DNA of 12,801 bases from a virus (IMGVR_UViG_3300021254_000001), one strand, 5' to 3'. Shown: positions 8,013 through 12,075, counted from the stretch's first letter. Translations and numbers: made by a program. The notes: generated by a model not told the origin, from the letters alone.

Positions 8013-9761
8013 CTATTTATTTGGTCTTCCTTCTCTTGACTTTAGAGCTGGAATGTTATCGGTTTTATCTTTAACTGTCTGAGTTTTAGTTTTTGTTCTG
8101 TTTTCTATTTGATTATTTGTTTGGTTTTGAGTCGTGCTTGTAGTTGTTTCTTTATTGTTGCCTCGAGAAGATAAGTCTTGAGCGTTATCAACATCATTTG
8201 GGCTAACGAAGGCTGTATCTGGAGCAACTGTCTCCCATAGTGTCTCGTTTTCTTCTTCTTTGTTCTTCTTCTCTGTAGCGTAATCATAGCCAAGATTAGA
8301 TAATAGTGTCTTATTAGAGATTATACCGTTTAACGCTAATTGTTGATTTATAGTCTCGTCTGTCATACTTGGTAAGTTTGTGCCGATTATTATGGTTATG
8401 TCATCAATATTATATTTGTTTGATGAGATGAGGTTTATTCGCTGAAAGAAATTGGCCCATCTGTGCTTAATCATTGCAGTTACACCCTGTTTTACGTCGT
8501 CTAGCATTAGCGCCATAGTATAAAATTTTCTATCTATTGCACTCGCATTCATATCTCCTGAGTTGAACGCAGCGTCAGAGGTATTAGGTATACCAGAAAT
8601 CTGAAAGATACTGTCAACGTAGTATTTTAAGTATTTCGTAGCGTCTTCTGCGTGTATTTCTTTTAGTAACCAGCTGACGTCTCCACCTTCTTGAACGAAG
8701 AATGTCTTAGAATTCTCTAAGTATTCGTCTTCTAACTGTCTAGCTGGGTTTGTAATCTTATCAGGATTTGAAGATGAGACTGGTTTCTCAGGGTCAAACG
8801 CTGGATTAGGTATCGTTAGTGGATTCTCTGGTCTATAGCCCGATATTTTCAACTTAGCGTCTTTATCGTTATAATTATACATATTGTTTAAATTATTCAT
8901 TATCTGTTCATAAGACGTAATTAGAGAAATTATTGGGTCTATAATACTGACTTGTGGGTCTGGCTCGTATGCTGTGAATGTTGGGACGGTGTGTGATGAC
9001 TCTTTTTCCTCTTTTAAAGTGATTTTATTTTTATATTCACTTGTCGCGTCTTCATTAGTTGTCTTATCATAAATAGACGTACCATAAAAACCAGTGTATG
9101 AGTTACATTCAATAACATAGTATAGTGTATGCTCTTGATTGTCTTCGCTATTACGTTTATCTAGTAGGTAACGTGTGATTAGACCTACTGGTTTTTGTTG
9201 GCTGATGTCAGATATGTCAGTTGGAAATATTGCTACTGTGTTTAGAGCGGATAGTGGGTAATACGTATAATTTGGGTCGGTTGTGTCTGGGGCGTCATCT
9301 GCAGCAATAGCGTCTGCCTGAGTTTGCTGAAGGTCCAATTGTCTCTCATAGCAACAGCCATAAAGGACTGCATCGTGAAATAATGCCTTCAAAACTTTAG
9401 GGTCATCATTTTTTGAGCTGAGAGTCGTGATAATAAACTTCAATTGCGCGGCTGTATCTGGGTCTAATGGAGCGGTGTGAGACGGATGAAGTAATCTATA
9501 AGCTGGTTCTTCACTTTTATCTACAATTTCTGCGTTGTAAGTTATCTCACCTGACAAATAACCAGAGGCTAAGTCGGTGATAAATTTTTCGAAAAATACT
9601 TGGACTGTTGCACCGGAAACTATGTCAGTGCTGGTTACTCCTCTTAGATAACGGTCATTGATTTCCGCACGTTTTGAAAGGACTTTGTCGACTTCTGACA
9701 ATAAATCTTGTAATTTACCATCATTGTATTCGTCTTTTATGTTTTTTGATATTTTAATCAT
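8013..9761 (-). CDS. Portal protein (SPP1 gp6-like, 582 aa)
   Basis: Typical blocks IISLITSYEQIMNN, GGDVSWLLKE, IFQISGIPNTSDAAFNSGDMNASAIDRKF and SNKTLLSNL. Start moved from 9785 to ATG 9761, behind AAGGAG. Confidence 0.85.
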   Translation of the reverse strand: MIKISKNIKDEYNDGKLQDLLSEVDKVLSKRAEINDRYLRGVTSTDIVSGATVQVFFEKFITDLASGYLSGEITYNAEIVDKSEEPAYRLLHPSHTAPLDPDTAAQLKFIITTLSSKNDDPKVLKALFHDAVLYGCCYERQLDLQQTQADAIAADDAPDTTDPNYTYYPLSALNTVAIFPTDISDISQQKPVGLITRYLLDKRNSEDNQEHTLYYVIECNSYTGFYGTSIYDKTTNEDATSEYKNKITLKEEKESSHTVPTFTAYEPDPQVSIIDPIISLITSYEQIMNNLNNMYNYNDKDAKLKISGYRPENPLTIPNPAFDPEKPVSSSNPDKITNPARQLEDEYLENSKTFFVQEGGDVSWLLKEIHAEDATKYLKYYVDSIFQISGIPNTSDAAFNSGDMNASAIDRKFYTMALMLDDVKQGVTAMIKHRWANFFQRINLISSNKYNIDDITIIIGTNLPSMTDETINQQLALNGIISNKTLLSNLGYDYATEKKNKEEENETLWETVAPDTAFVSPNDVDNAQDLSSRGNNKETTTSTTQNQTNNQIENRTKTKTQTVKDKTDNIPALKSREGRPNK

Positions 9762-9793
9762 AAAAAATTTGTCTCCTTTCTTCATTTGTTCAC

Positions 9794-9833
9794 ATTATAT
9801 CTTAACTGAACAAAATTTGCAAGTGGAGTACAA
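9794..9833 (-). promoter_or_regulatory. Leftward (portal operon) promoter TTGCAA-17-TATAAT
   Basis: -35 at 9822-9817, -10 at 9799-9794, 17-nt spacer. The upstream motif is shared with the 3863-3902 promoter. Confidence 0.75.
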
Positions 9834-9849
9834 CAACTTTCTTGACTTT

Positions 9850-10087
9850 TTTCGAGCTGTTGCTCGAAAGCCACACTTGACTAGGGTTGAACAATGTGAT
9901 AAAATAGACAAGAACCTTGTTGTTTCCAGTATTTTTACTGGAAATATTTTACCCCTTAATGTAGACAAGAACCTTGTTGTCTAATTTTTCGCAGTATATG
10001 TTTTGATTTCGGGCAACCGCCCGAAATATCTACCCCTTATAGTTAGACAAGAGGTGTGTTGTCTGATTTTTTACAATATATGTTTTG
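9850..10087. repeat. Hairpin + palindrome repeat array in the divergent control region
   Basis: Three perfect 8-9-bp hairpins with 4-nt loops (9850-9869, 9923-9944, 10006-10027), three TAGACAA-N8-TTGT(C/T)T(A/C/G) palindromes (9905, 9962, 10044) and two ~65-bp imperfect direct repeats (9941-10005, 10023-10087). Confidence 0.9.
9877..9905 (+). promoter_or_regulatory. Rightward promoter TTGACT-17-TAAAAT with extended -10 (TGn)
   Basis: -35 at 9877-9882, -10 at 9900-9905, preceded by TGA. The predicted start site falls inside the first palindrome. Confidence 0.55.
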
Positions 10088-10181
10088 TGAGTCGCCACCC
10101 ATCCTGGCAAGGTCTGAAGATATACTAAGTAAAGGCTTTACAGGATTTGATCCTAGATTACAAAAACATAATGATATACTA

Positions 10182-10210
10182 TTGACAAACTACCAAAAAT
10201 TTAGTATAAT
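10182..10210 (+). promoter_or_regulatory. Early promoter P1, perfect sigma-A/sigma-70 consensus
   Basis: TTGACA (10182-10187), 17 nt, TATAAT (10205-10210), with an A-rich UP-like region. Confidence 0.9.
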
Positions 10211-10380
10211 AGAATTAACAAAAGCAAAAAGAAAAACGTATTTACTATAAGTAAATACATTTCATAAAATAGTTTTTGTTATGTATGTATACACATTAAA
10301 AGTATACAAGTATAGTTGCATTACTAAAAATATATGTAACAGATAATGGCTAATCATTAAATAGAGAGGAGTGTGGTATT

Positions 10381-10689
10381 ATGGACAAATATATTTTATA
10401 TGTAGGTCTAAACGATAAAAACACAAAAACACAAAAAATTGATACTTTAAGTGCTTACAACTTAACAAATAATATTTTACTTAATTATGTTGAAGGTGCA
10501 ACAGTAACACAATCAAAAGGAATTTATAAACACAATAATGGCAATGTAGTAATAGAAAACACTTTAATTATAGAGTTATTATTCACAGATAAACAAACAG
10601 TCGAAACAATAGCAAAAGACTTAAAAATTGCATTAAATCAAGAAAGCATTGCAATACAAAAGCAAACAATAGAAAGCTATTTATTCTAA
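10381..10689 (+). CDS. Putative S-adenosylmethionine lyase (DUF3574 / Svi3-3-like, PII-like fold)
   Basis: Motifs YVGLN, G47-x-Y49...E59-N and Q87-E88-S match the motif order I recall for phage SAM lyase Svi3-3 (FVGLN; RGVY...ENS; KQESV). First gene after the early promoter. Confidence 0.7.
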   Translation: MDKYILYVGLNDKNTKTQKIDTLSAYNLTNNILLNYVEGATVTQSKGIYKHNNGNVVIENTLIIELLFTDKQTVETIAKDLKIALNQESIAIQKQTIESYLF

Positions 10690-10779
10690 TTCGACAAATA
10701 GTAGGTAAAAACGGCTGAAACCCTACTGAAAGCCGTCATATAAAATCAAAAAATTAAAAAATTATGGAGGTAAAAAATT

Positions 10780-11151
10780 ATGGAAAAATCAAGAATTGAA
10801 GAAATTGCAATGGCAGTTGCAATGGTTGAATATTATCAAGAAATTATTGACAATGCAAAAGAAGAAATCAGAAACTTATCAGAAGAAGAAATTACAGAAA
10901 TTAACAAAGGAAAAGACTTAATAATTAAAAGACAAAACTATACAAAAACAATATATTCAAAAGAATATCAAGAAGCTAAAAAAGAATTAGAGAAGAAATT
11001 TCCACCAACAAAAGAAACAACAGTAAATTATACAATCAAATTACAAGCAACAGCTTATACAACAAGTAAAAGAGAGCTAATAACAAGCAAATTCACAAAC
11101 TTAAATAAAACTCAACTAAAAGCAGCAAGCAAAAACGCAAATATAAAATAA
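10780..11151 (+). CDS. Hypothetical early protein (123 aa)
   Basis: GGAGG RBS and a clean ORF; no recognised family. Confidence 0.75.
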   Translation: MEKSRIEEIAMAVAMVEYYQEIIDNAKEEIRNLSEEEITEINKGKDLIIKRQNYTKTIYSKEYQEAKKELEKKFPPTKETTVNYTIKLQATAYTTSKRELITSKFTNLNKTQLKAASKNANIK

Positions 11152-11195: not shown

Positions 11196-11459
11196 ATGGA
11201 CGCCATTAAATTATTAAACAAAACAGAAAATGGAATGTATGTAGTAGTCATATTAAAAAACGGAATACGTTGCCCGTCCCTATATATGGGGCAACCAACA
11301 CCAGGAATATATCAATTCATAGACGACAGTGGGATATACAGAATAACAGCGGGATATATCAAAGAGCATAATATAAAAATCGACCAAACATTAAACAGTG
11401 AAGAATTATTCCAAATAGGAGTAATCGTAAATCAAGTAACGAAAAAGGAGGTAAAATAA
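11196..11459 (+). CDS. Hypothetical early protein (87 aa)
   Basis: AGGAGG RBS and a clean ORF. Confidence 0.75.
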   Translation: MDAIKLLNKTENGMYVVVILKNGIRCPSLYMGQPTPGIYQFIDDSGIYRITAGYIKEHNIKIDQTLNSEELFQIGVIVNQVTKKEVK

Positions 11460-11802: not shown

Positions 11803-12075
11803 ATGGAATTCTTATACGAATTACAACCACAATATGACAGTAGAAAATCATTCTACAAAAAAGCTAAAGTATACAAAGACGACAAAGGACATTTGCTACT
11901 AATGAGCTATTCAACAATAGTCGCAGAAATTACAGACGGGATCGCAACAGAAGACGGACGACCAACAGTAAAAGTGAACGGCTGGTACAGTAGCACAACG
12001 GCAAGACACATTAACGACTTCTTATATCAACACGGCTTCGACACAATGAGTAAAAAAGAAATGGAGGAAAATTAG
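11803..12075 (+). CDS. Conserved phage hypothetical protein (SYxTxVA...GWYSxTTxRH family)
   Basis: LMSYSTIVAEI and GWYSSTTARHINDF resemble a widespread small phage protein family of unknown function. Confidence 0.65.
   Translation: MEFLYELQPQYDSRKSFYKKAKVYKDDKGHLLLMSYSTIVAEITDGIATEDGRPTVKVNGWYSSTTARHINDFLYQHGFDTMSKKEMEEN

Follow-up and report, generated by a model that had tools for sequence, protein, structure and literature searches.

A stretch of 12,801 nucleotides from the virus IMGVR_UViG_3300021254_000001, hereafter the window, carries a short array of repeats at positions 9850-10087. The array is the rightward half of a 595-bp divergent intergenic region (9786-10380) that has the portal (late) genes on one side and the early genes on the other. 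We read it as a promoter-operator cassette reiterated three times in tandem, with hairpins as accessory parts, in the control region of a phage, and we put the probability of this reading at roughly 0.5, a shade better than even. Its components are three hairpins (H1, H2 and H3), three copies of a 20-bp dyad, and predicted promoters (P1, P2 and P3) that abut or follow the dyads (Table 1). The initial annotation of this DNA had instead described structurally conserved hairpins separated by conserved linkers. Comparison with relatives reverses that emphasis: the linker, composed of the dyad and a core promoter, is the part found across the clade, and the hairpins are confined to a narrow sub-lineage.

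For this comparison, 35 distinct versions of the control region were gathered from relatives (34-35 in some counts). The relatives, all uncultured, are 73-79-kb contigs sampled from the rumen and the human gut and are cited here by locus number. One of them (L198-L201; G003:C206, 78,950 bp) is a complete genome, binned in a Bacilli metagenome-assembled genome (MAG); its assembly has a 141-bp terminal overlap, indicating a circular or terminally redundant molecule.

A dyad and a predicted core promoter form the conserved unit

Two copies of a 65-bp block, at 9941-10005 and 10023-10087, have a period of 82 and are 75% identical without gaps. The block following H2 and H3 had been recognized from the outset; overlooked within it were the dyad, present three times in the window, and a -10-like hexamer. 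In each copy of the block, the 20-bp dyad is followed by 12 bp of T-rich spacer, the hexamer TATATG and TTTTG. The dyad copies, which begin at 9906, 9963 and 10045 and are therefore spaced 57 and 82 bp apart, follow the consensus AGACAA-S-A-N4-T-S-TTGTCT. Across 22 distinct instances, positions 1-6 and 15-20, the half-sites, scarcely vary or do not vary at all (18-22 of 22), A8 and T13 are kept in 19 and in all 22 instances, positions 9-12 are free, and positions 7 and 14 are often G and G, which are non-complementary. Because the half-sites are kept, the centre is free and the G/G at 7/14 cannot pair, the dyad is a putative protein-binding site, conserved in its sequence and not in its pairing.

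The geometry of this unit and its distribution among relatives are direct observations. The proximal half-site and the hexamer are separated by 12 bp (range 11-13) in every dyad-bearing relative; the distance from the dyad to the leftward late promoter varies widely. Inspection of the sequence upstream of the P2 and P3 hexamers found no -35 hexamer at 16-18 bp. In relatives that lack the dyad, a block with the sequence GTTTACATAAT occupies the same place, and its TTTACA stands 17-18 bp from the same hexamer, forming an ordinary -35/-10 pair. P3 is the copy of the core promoter that is found in all relatives. A scan of the 11 largest open reading frames (ORFs) in the complete 78.9-kb relative detected no phage RNA polymerase, and promoters of the host polymerase are therefore expected. 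The largest of these ORFs, of 1707 amino acids, has no PHROG match and only sub-threshold Pfam matches to glycine zippers; with this glycine-zipper region it looks like a tape measure protein.

The perfect dyad is specific to this locus: a search of 480 kb of related DNA returned no copy at any other place, and the complete relative genome has one. Two broader uses of the motif were considered and rejected. A host regulon is not indicated, the dyad being no commoner than a reversed control in three MAG bins, and a wider promoter class, defined as TTGTCT-N12 plus a -10-like hexamer, occurs genome-wide at a frequency near chance.

The number of cassettes varies among relatives

Most relatives have one dyad and no hairpin. 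Among those closest to the window, L001-L003 have P1, a single dyad and a single hexamer, that is, one cassette; L004, L005 and L028 have two dyads; L007 has two units, with H2; and L008 shares with the window the form with three units, H2 and H3. L189 carries a recombinant form, in which the upstream TTGACT replaces a half-site 12 bp from the hexamer. The promoter block has also multiplied without hairpins in independent lineages, namely L182 (three -35 blocks), L011, L185 and L175. Since these multiplications are independent, reiteration of the promoter module is a recurrent event in the clade, of which the window is the largest example.

This variation bears on the layout first attributed to the array, a CRISPR (clustered regularly interspaced short palindromic repeats) turned inside out. 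In a CRISPR, unique units of similar length separate at least three near-identical direct repeats, whose length is constant; here we find two full 65-bp copies at 75% identity, effectively two hairpin types, and from one to three units among relatives, so that neither a CRISPR nor its inverse describes the locus. No cas gene was detected when the ORFs on either side of the array were scanned against PHROG and Pfam, and Rfam gave no known repeat family. The likeness of the hairpins or linker to Cas12a, Cas13a and type I-C CRISPR repeats, or to T7-family promoters, we take to be unconvincing. An integron attC site, also rejected, has an imperfect hairpin with extrahelical bases and requires an integrase; the stems here are perfect, and a scan of 14 window ORFs detected no recombinase.

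The unit is also rare outside the gathered set. A pattern scan of IMG/VR with the end of the hairpin plus the linker returned only the contig of L008, and among the matches listed for a looser pattern of linker plus dyad there were only chance matches.

Hairpins of a narrow sub-lineage

The three hairpins lie within 180 bp of one another. Their stems are perfect, without bulges, and begin with TTTC at the 5' side and end with GAAA at the 3' side, with 4-nt loops, as had been described. When hairpins are counted as perfect stems of at least 8 bp with loops of 3-6 nt, the segment 9840-10100 has three, against a mean of 0.016 in 5000 dinucleotide shuffles, in which three were never reached. By the same criterion, there are six in the whole window and eight in the complete 78.9-kb relative, and none of those eight is of the TTTC/GAAA type. 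With stabilities of -10 to -13 kcal/mol, H1-H3 equal the terminator that follows the endolysin gene, also in the window.

H1 and H3 are near-identical paralogues, one compensated pair apart, and H2 is a second type; in L003, the loop of H1 is AACC, as in H3. The compensatory change originally proposed is thus real for that single H1/H3 pair, but it comes from comparing paralogues within one genome, and between genomes the stems do not vary. Where orthologues exist, changes are found in loops only: between the window and L008 there are 0 changes in 36 stem nucleotides, while the flanks differ by roughly 10%. H1 has orthologues in L002 (loop AACA, the inverse of TGTT) and L003, H2 in L007/L169 (loop TTTTT) and L008, and H3 in L008 (loop AACT).

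Hairpins of this type occur only in the window, L008, L007/L169, L002 and L003, whose portal identity to the window is 93-96%, or 92-97% in another count. Absence of the array in related phages, or breakage of its stems, had been named in the annotation as evidence against selected hairpins, and to a large extent this is what the relatives present. None of the hairpins is present in 28 of the 35; H1 is absent from L004, L007 and L008, and its 3' arm is deleted in L001/L023; and in L189 (92% portal identity) a 13-bp deletion between CCC repeats has removed the base of H3 and part of the linker. The hairpins are best read, on this comparison of sequences, as recent and dispensable spacers of a few very close relatives.

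Several relatives differ from one another by exact small inversions. These affect the H1 loop (9858-9861, compared with L002), the centre of dyad 2 (9969-9976, compared with L007/L008) and, in L020 and L022, the whole 11-bp -35 block. Their repeated occurrence indicates that DNA-level flip events are common in the region.

Among more distant relatives, mini-palindromes made of a G run and a C run (e.g. GGGGTACCCC) stand directly upstream of the -35 block or dyad in L009, L188, L181, L016, L024, L179 and L174, and several are followed by T runs. The ACCCC in the window linker may be a remnant of such a mini-palindrome.

Placement of the hairpins relative to promoters

The positions of the hairpins relative to the predicted starts and promoters are suggestive. 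H1 is flanked by two TTGACT hexamers, H2 lies some 11 nt beyond the start predicted for P1, and H3 opens at the base (about 10006) where P2 is predicted to start. On the plus strand, 5 of the 8 nt in the tail behind H2 are U, and H2 alone among the three looks like a terminator in shape. A scan for consensus terminators called none in 9600-10500. The hairpins resemble intrinsic terminators in their stable GC-cored stems and in the U-rich tail of H2; they differ in that H1 and H3 have no U tract and that the A/T polarity is wrong, with T before the stem and A after it.

Folding of the array exceeds that of shuffled sequences on the leader strand (z -4.6) and on the opposite strand (z -5.9). Both strands fold equally well, and the folding therefore gives no pointer to one transcribed strand. 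A repeat-structured RNA, one of the candidates first listed, accordingly gains no strand-specific support from this result, though it keeps a small probability. The replication origin, the packaging signal, the attC-like substrate and the hairpin-type promoter in its N4 form, which stood beside it in that list, each fail on the features tested.

A conserved 60-nt segment downstream of the last cassette

Directly 3' of the last hexamer is a segment of 60 nt that is present in all 34-35 distinct relatives. It contains two invariant blocks, GTCGCCAC and AAGATATACTA, which are held at a fixed spacing of 18 nt and separated by a variable, C-rich stretch; a short T run closes the segment. The segment, into which the last cassette always points, is a candidate small transcript. 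Within the window, no target complementary to its conserved blocks was found. The best Rfam 15 match in 9300-10800 was Ref84, at 25 bits against a gathering threshold of 52, and nine related loci gave nothing at E<=1. A short motif, GATATACTA, occurs twice in the window, 54 bp apart: one copy (10119-10127) lies inside the segment and the other (10173-10181), seen also in L001, L002, L004, L007, L008 and L175, abuts the -35 of the strong early promoter.

A model for the cassette

In the arrangement we propose, each cassette would consist of a perfect GC-cored palindrome (the hairpin), a short linker and a 20-bp dyad operator, followed 12 bp on by a -10 hexamer, TATATG, without a -35. From the geometry we infer a phage-encoded, dimeric DNA-binding protein that would occupy the dyads. 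At P2 and P3, the dimer would sit in the -35 position, where it could either substitute for -35 recognition, as an activator with the geometry of a T4 middle promoter, or repress. At dyad 1, it would act as a roadblock to P1, whose -10 abuts this copy (9906). Extra cassettes would come from tandem duplication or unequal recombination that joins the conserved blocks, and would set the dose and timing of the small transcript. The hairpins would serve as accessory separators: transcripts from P1 probably end at H2 and the U-rich tail behind it, those from P2 would carry H3 as a 5' stem, and H1 would stand between two divergent promoters. The stems may stay perfect through weak selection on the stem or through template switching that homogenises palindromes. 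The selection on hairpin or cruciform shape that had been put forward is retained in this limited form, since a perfection beyond chance needs a cause, but a palindrome-making mechanism at the DNA level could be that cause instead.

Operator arrays with several sites are well known from phage lambda (OR1-OR3 and OL1-OL3) and from the central control region of phi29, where p4 sites lie between the early promoters A2b/A2c and the late promoter A3. The array resembles these in having several dyad sites between divergent early and late units, overlapping a -35 or +1, with conserved half-sites and a free centre. It departs from them in that the copies are 57 and 82 bp apart and not adjacent, that their number ranges from one to three among close relatives, that the target is a 60-nt segment and not a repressor gene, and that GC hairpins stand between the copies.

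In their spacing, P2 and P3 are comparable to the middle promoters of phage T4, where a host -10 stands without a -35 and a phage box is placed 12 +/- 1 bp upstream of it (PMC2988021). The 12 bp (11-13) between proximal half-site and hexamer in all dyad-bearing relatives reproduces this distance. In T4, MotA is a monomer with an asymmetric box, whereas the symmetric 20-bp dyad implies a dimer; there is one such promoter per genome against about 60, and the hosts are Firmicutes. No MotA or AsiA homologue was found in the ORFs scanned, MotA not having been searched genome-wide. A helical, charged early protein of 123 amino acids encoded at 10780-11151 has a weak, near full-length Pfam match to T4 AsiA. 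It was rejected as an AsiA-like anti-sigma factor, with 13.9 bits against a cut-off of 25 and no AsiA match among solved structures.

A bolder version of the model would make the -35-replacing dyad, 12 bp from a host -10, an activator-dependent promoter of the middle type, a dimeric analogue of T4 sigma appropriation that serves a single 60-nt transcript. The hairpins of the sub-lineage would then be supercoil-sensitive or RNA-level (nut-like) switches that choose between the short RNA and read-on into the early operon. We regard this version as improbable.

Several observations weigh against the reiterated promoter-operator cassette as we have described it. All the transcript starts and ends on which it draws are predictions. 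The hexamer TATATG lacks the canonical final T of a -10, and the hexamer that is kept more strictly could be TATGTT, for which the spacing from TTTACA would be 19-20 bp. H1 has no plus-strand promoter upstream, and neither H1 nor H3 has a U tail on either strand (1-2 U only), so that the role of an insulating terminator suits H2 alone. The candidate small transcript has no consensus fold in RNAalifold, a mean folding z of 0.02 over 32 relatives, and no covarying helix in a fixed-register pair scan. The hexamer might also be a start-codon region and not a -10: an ATG inside it opens a frame (MFCESPP...KDIL...) in which at least 20 codons are open in 29 of 32 relatives. This frame has early stops in L004, L021 and L013, a one-base shift in L017 and L185, no Shine-Dalgarno sequence, and a column entropy without codon periodicity (0.98, 1.01 and 1.13 bits), and we keep a micropeptide as a minor possibility.

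The search for a cognate regulator of the dyad gives further grounds for caution. No helix-turn-helix or other DNA-binding family was recognised in the early ORFs scanned, and co-occurrence provides loose associations only. Two families of proteins of about 90 amino acids, encoded in the window at 11196-11459 and 11803-12075, are found in 8 of 18 dyad-bearing relatives versus none of 17 others, and in 10 of 18 versus 1 of 17, respectively; a third enriched family of this size (10 of 18 versus 2 of 17) is absent from the window. These associations are confounded by relatedness, neither window family tracks the dyad strictly, and none of the three has a recognisable DNA-binding domain.

Alternative explanations for the hairpins

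The alternatives concern mainly the hairpins. The best placed, which we still consider unlikely, is that they have no function of their own and are by-products of fold-back or template switching together with unequal recombination in a promoter region prone to duplication, their arms staying perfect because one is copied from the other. The inversions are what such a process would leave, be it in the H1 loop (TGTT/AACA), in the 8-nt centre of dyad 2 or in the -35 block of L020/L022, as are the deletions between short direct repeats in L001/L023 and L189. The narrow sub-lineage also fits, and the near identity of the paralogues H1 and H3 implies that the hairpin itself was copied. Against this, the three hairpins are placed non-randomly relative to the predicted starts and promoters, and their stems show 0 changes in 36 positions against L008 within flanks that are roughly 10% different. 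The GC-rich mini-palindromes at the same place in distant relatives, moreover, hint at a positional requirement.

Somewhat less probable again is a role as RNA cis-elements at the 5' end of P1 and P2 transcripts, in which the hairpin, with the motif ACCCCUUA, would recruit a factor for nut- or put-like antitermination, RNase III processing or 5' stabilisation, so that the short P3 transcript would differ in behaviour from those of upstream cassettes. The location of H2 just past the predicted P1 start, and of H3 at that of P2, would suit this role, as would the fact that both are followed by the same linear motif. The leader folds beyond shuffles, and the early leader of about 20 relatives has a hairpin as well, which makes 5' leader hairpins a habit of the clade. 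The still stronger folding of the opposite strand, however, reduces that signal to the palindromes themselves; there is no G-U pair or other strand-specific signature, the loops vary and share no motif, no promoter precedes H1, almost every relative can dispense with the elements, and no N-like or Q-like factor was identified. In lambda, the nut site, a boxA plus a boxB hairpin, lies downstream of the early promoters. The cassette shares with it a hairpin with a copy-specific stem beside a short conserved motif, just past predicted starts. It differs in that the hairpin precedes the motif, the stems are longer and no loop is conserved, and also in that no N-like protein was found and that the element is absent from nearly all relatives.

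A role for the hairpins as DNA is very unlikely. They could be extruded as cruciforms, form a second dyad operator (half-site TTTCGRGC, 4-nt centre) or act as hairpin promoters of a phage polymerase; they would then sense supercoiling between divergent or tandem promoters, or bind a second dimeric protein. The 8+4+8 layout recalls the dyad operator, perfect palindromes with a 4-nt centre and AT-rich flanks favour extrusion, and H1 stands exactly between two back-to-back promoters. A protein site, however, needs no perfect symmetry, yet all copies are perfect, and H2 differs from the others in half-site and length. For hairpin promoters, phage N4 provides the precedent of three early ones, each with a GC-rich heptamer centred at -11, short inverted repeats, and conserved loop and stem bases (PMC4496689). 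Three small hairpins with partly conserved and partly free stem bases, clustered where the early region begins in a phage of roughly 70 kb, are indeed N4-like. Here, though, the stems are 8-9 bp long and the loops, of 4 nt, differ (TGTT, TTTT, AACC, AACT, AACA), unlike the N4 heptamer hairpin. N4 also requires a virion polymerase of roughly 3500 amino acids, whereas the complete relative encodes no such giant, its largest ORF having 1707.

A replication origin or packaging signal, with iterons and hairpins where transcription diverges, is highly improbable: an intergenic strand switch, repeated protein-binding sites, AT-rich flanks and promoters able to prime would suit it, but most relatives have one dyad and no hairpin and hence no iteron array, the sites are palindromic and not direct repeats, the contigs of relatives end elsewhere (the complete relative is circular, with its 141-bp overlap at another place), the terminase gene is about 10 kb away, and GC skew turns near 7.6 kb and not at the array.

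Promoters and genes around the array

The control region is bordered by two further promoters (Table 1). On the left, the portal promoter is preceded by a motif that reads AAGTGGAGTACAAC on the plus strand and is kept in all relatives; in the window, it lies at 9821-9834, so that on the minus strand it is just upstream of, and extends into, the -35 of this promoter. The complete relative has two copies (L199:10090 and L199:15990; G003:C206 30090 and 35990), a distribution that fits a putative site for an activator of late promoters. P1 is conserved in L001-L008, L021 and L005. On the right, the strong early promoter forms the border.

Table 1 Hairpins, dyads, promoters and the conserved segment in the control region, in coordinates of the window
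Feature	Position	Strand	Description
Portal (late) promoter	9794-9833	-	-35 TTGCAA 9822-9817, -10 TATAAT 9799-9794; from promoter scan
H1	9850-9869		Perfect 8-bp stem, loop TGTT; between the divergent late and P1 promoters
P1, sigma-70-type promoter	9877-9905	+	TTGACT-17-TAAAAT with TG extension; 10/12 matches plus TG
Dyad copy 1	9906-9925		Imperfect, right half TTGTTT; 3-nt overlap with H2
H2	9923-9944		Perfect 9-bp stem, loop TTTT, about -10 kcal/mol
Linker 2	9945-9962	+	Contains ACCCCTTA at 9951-9958
Dyad copy 2	9963-9982		Perfect, AGACAA-N8-TTGTCT; central 8 nt inverted in L007 and L008
Core promoter P2	9983-10005	+	12-bp T-rich spacer, -10 TATATG 9995-10000, TTTTG; start predicted at about 10006 from fixed geometry
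H3	10006-10027		Perfect 9-bp stem, loop AACC, -13 kcal/mol
Linker 3	10028-10044	+	Contains ACCCCTTA at 10032-10039
Dyad copy 3	10045-10064		Perfect half-sites
Core promoter P3	10065-10087	+	12-bp spacer, -10 TATATG 10077-10082, TTTTG; predicted start about 10089
Conserved 60-nt segment	10089-10148	+	Directly 3' of the last hexamer; in all 34-35 distinct relatives
Early-operon promoter	10182-10210	+	TTGACA-17-TATAAT, 12/12 matches; right border of the control region

A perfect AT-rich hairpin (10238-10258) separates the consensus early promoter from the first early gene. A hairpin is found at the same place in about 20 related loci (for instance L001:1791-1820, L010:2705-2736 and L199:16222-16250); its position is kept clade-wide, its stems measure 9-14 bp, its sequences are entirely different, and a T run lies 3' of it on the minus strand. 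This early-leader hairpin is a clearer example of structure kept while sequence is free than the H1-H3 array.

The window is phage DNA and comes from a roughly 77-kb uncultured phage of gut or rumen Firmicutes. PHROG and Pfam scans of the window ORFs identified leftward genes for a portal protein (8013-9785, SPP1-type), a scaffold, a holin and an endolysin, and rightward genes that start at 10381, small early genes first and then an AAA ATPase. The sole hint of the host is that the contigs of three relatives were binned with Clostridia, Lachnospiraceae and Bacilli MAGs. Neither the intergenic region nor the whole window has a DNA match among GenBank phages, among which the portal protein has a single distant match (27% identity). 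A search for tRNA and tmRNA genes found none.

Implications

These analyses provide a first map of the central control region for a clade of uncultured phages without a close phage relative in GenBank. The map comprises a late promoter with a clade-wide motif, a dyad unique to the locus at the -35 position of a rightward promoter, a 60-nt segment conserved in every relative, and a consensus early promoter. It offers defined elements for work on promoters, operators and regulators, and it reveals rapid gain and loss of promoter cassettes within the clade. The hairpins also carry a warning: differences between stems within one genome mimicked covariation, and the relatives then exposed paralogy, loop inversions and arm deletions. 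If the dyad proves to be the site of an activator, the promoter logic of T4 would extend to phages of Firmicutes.

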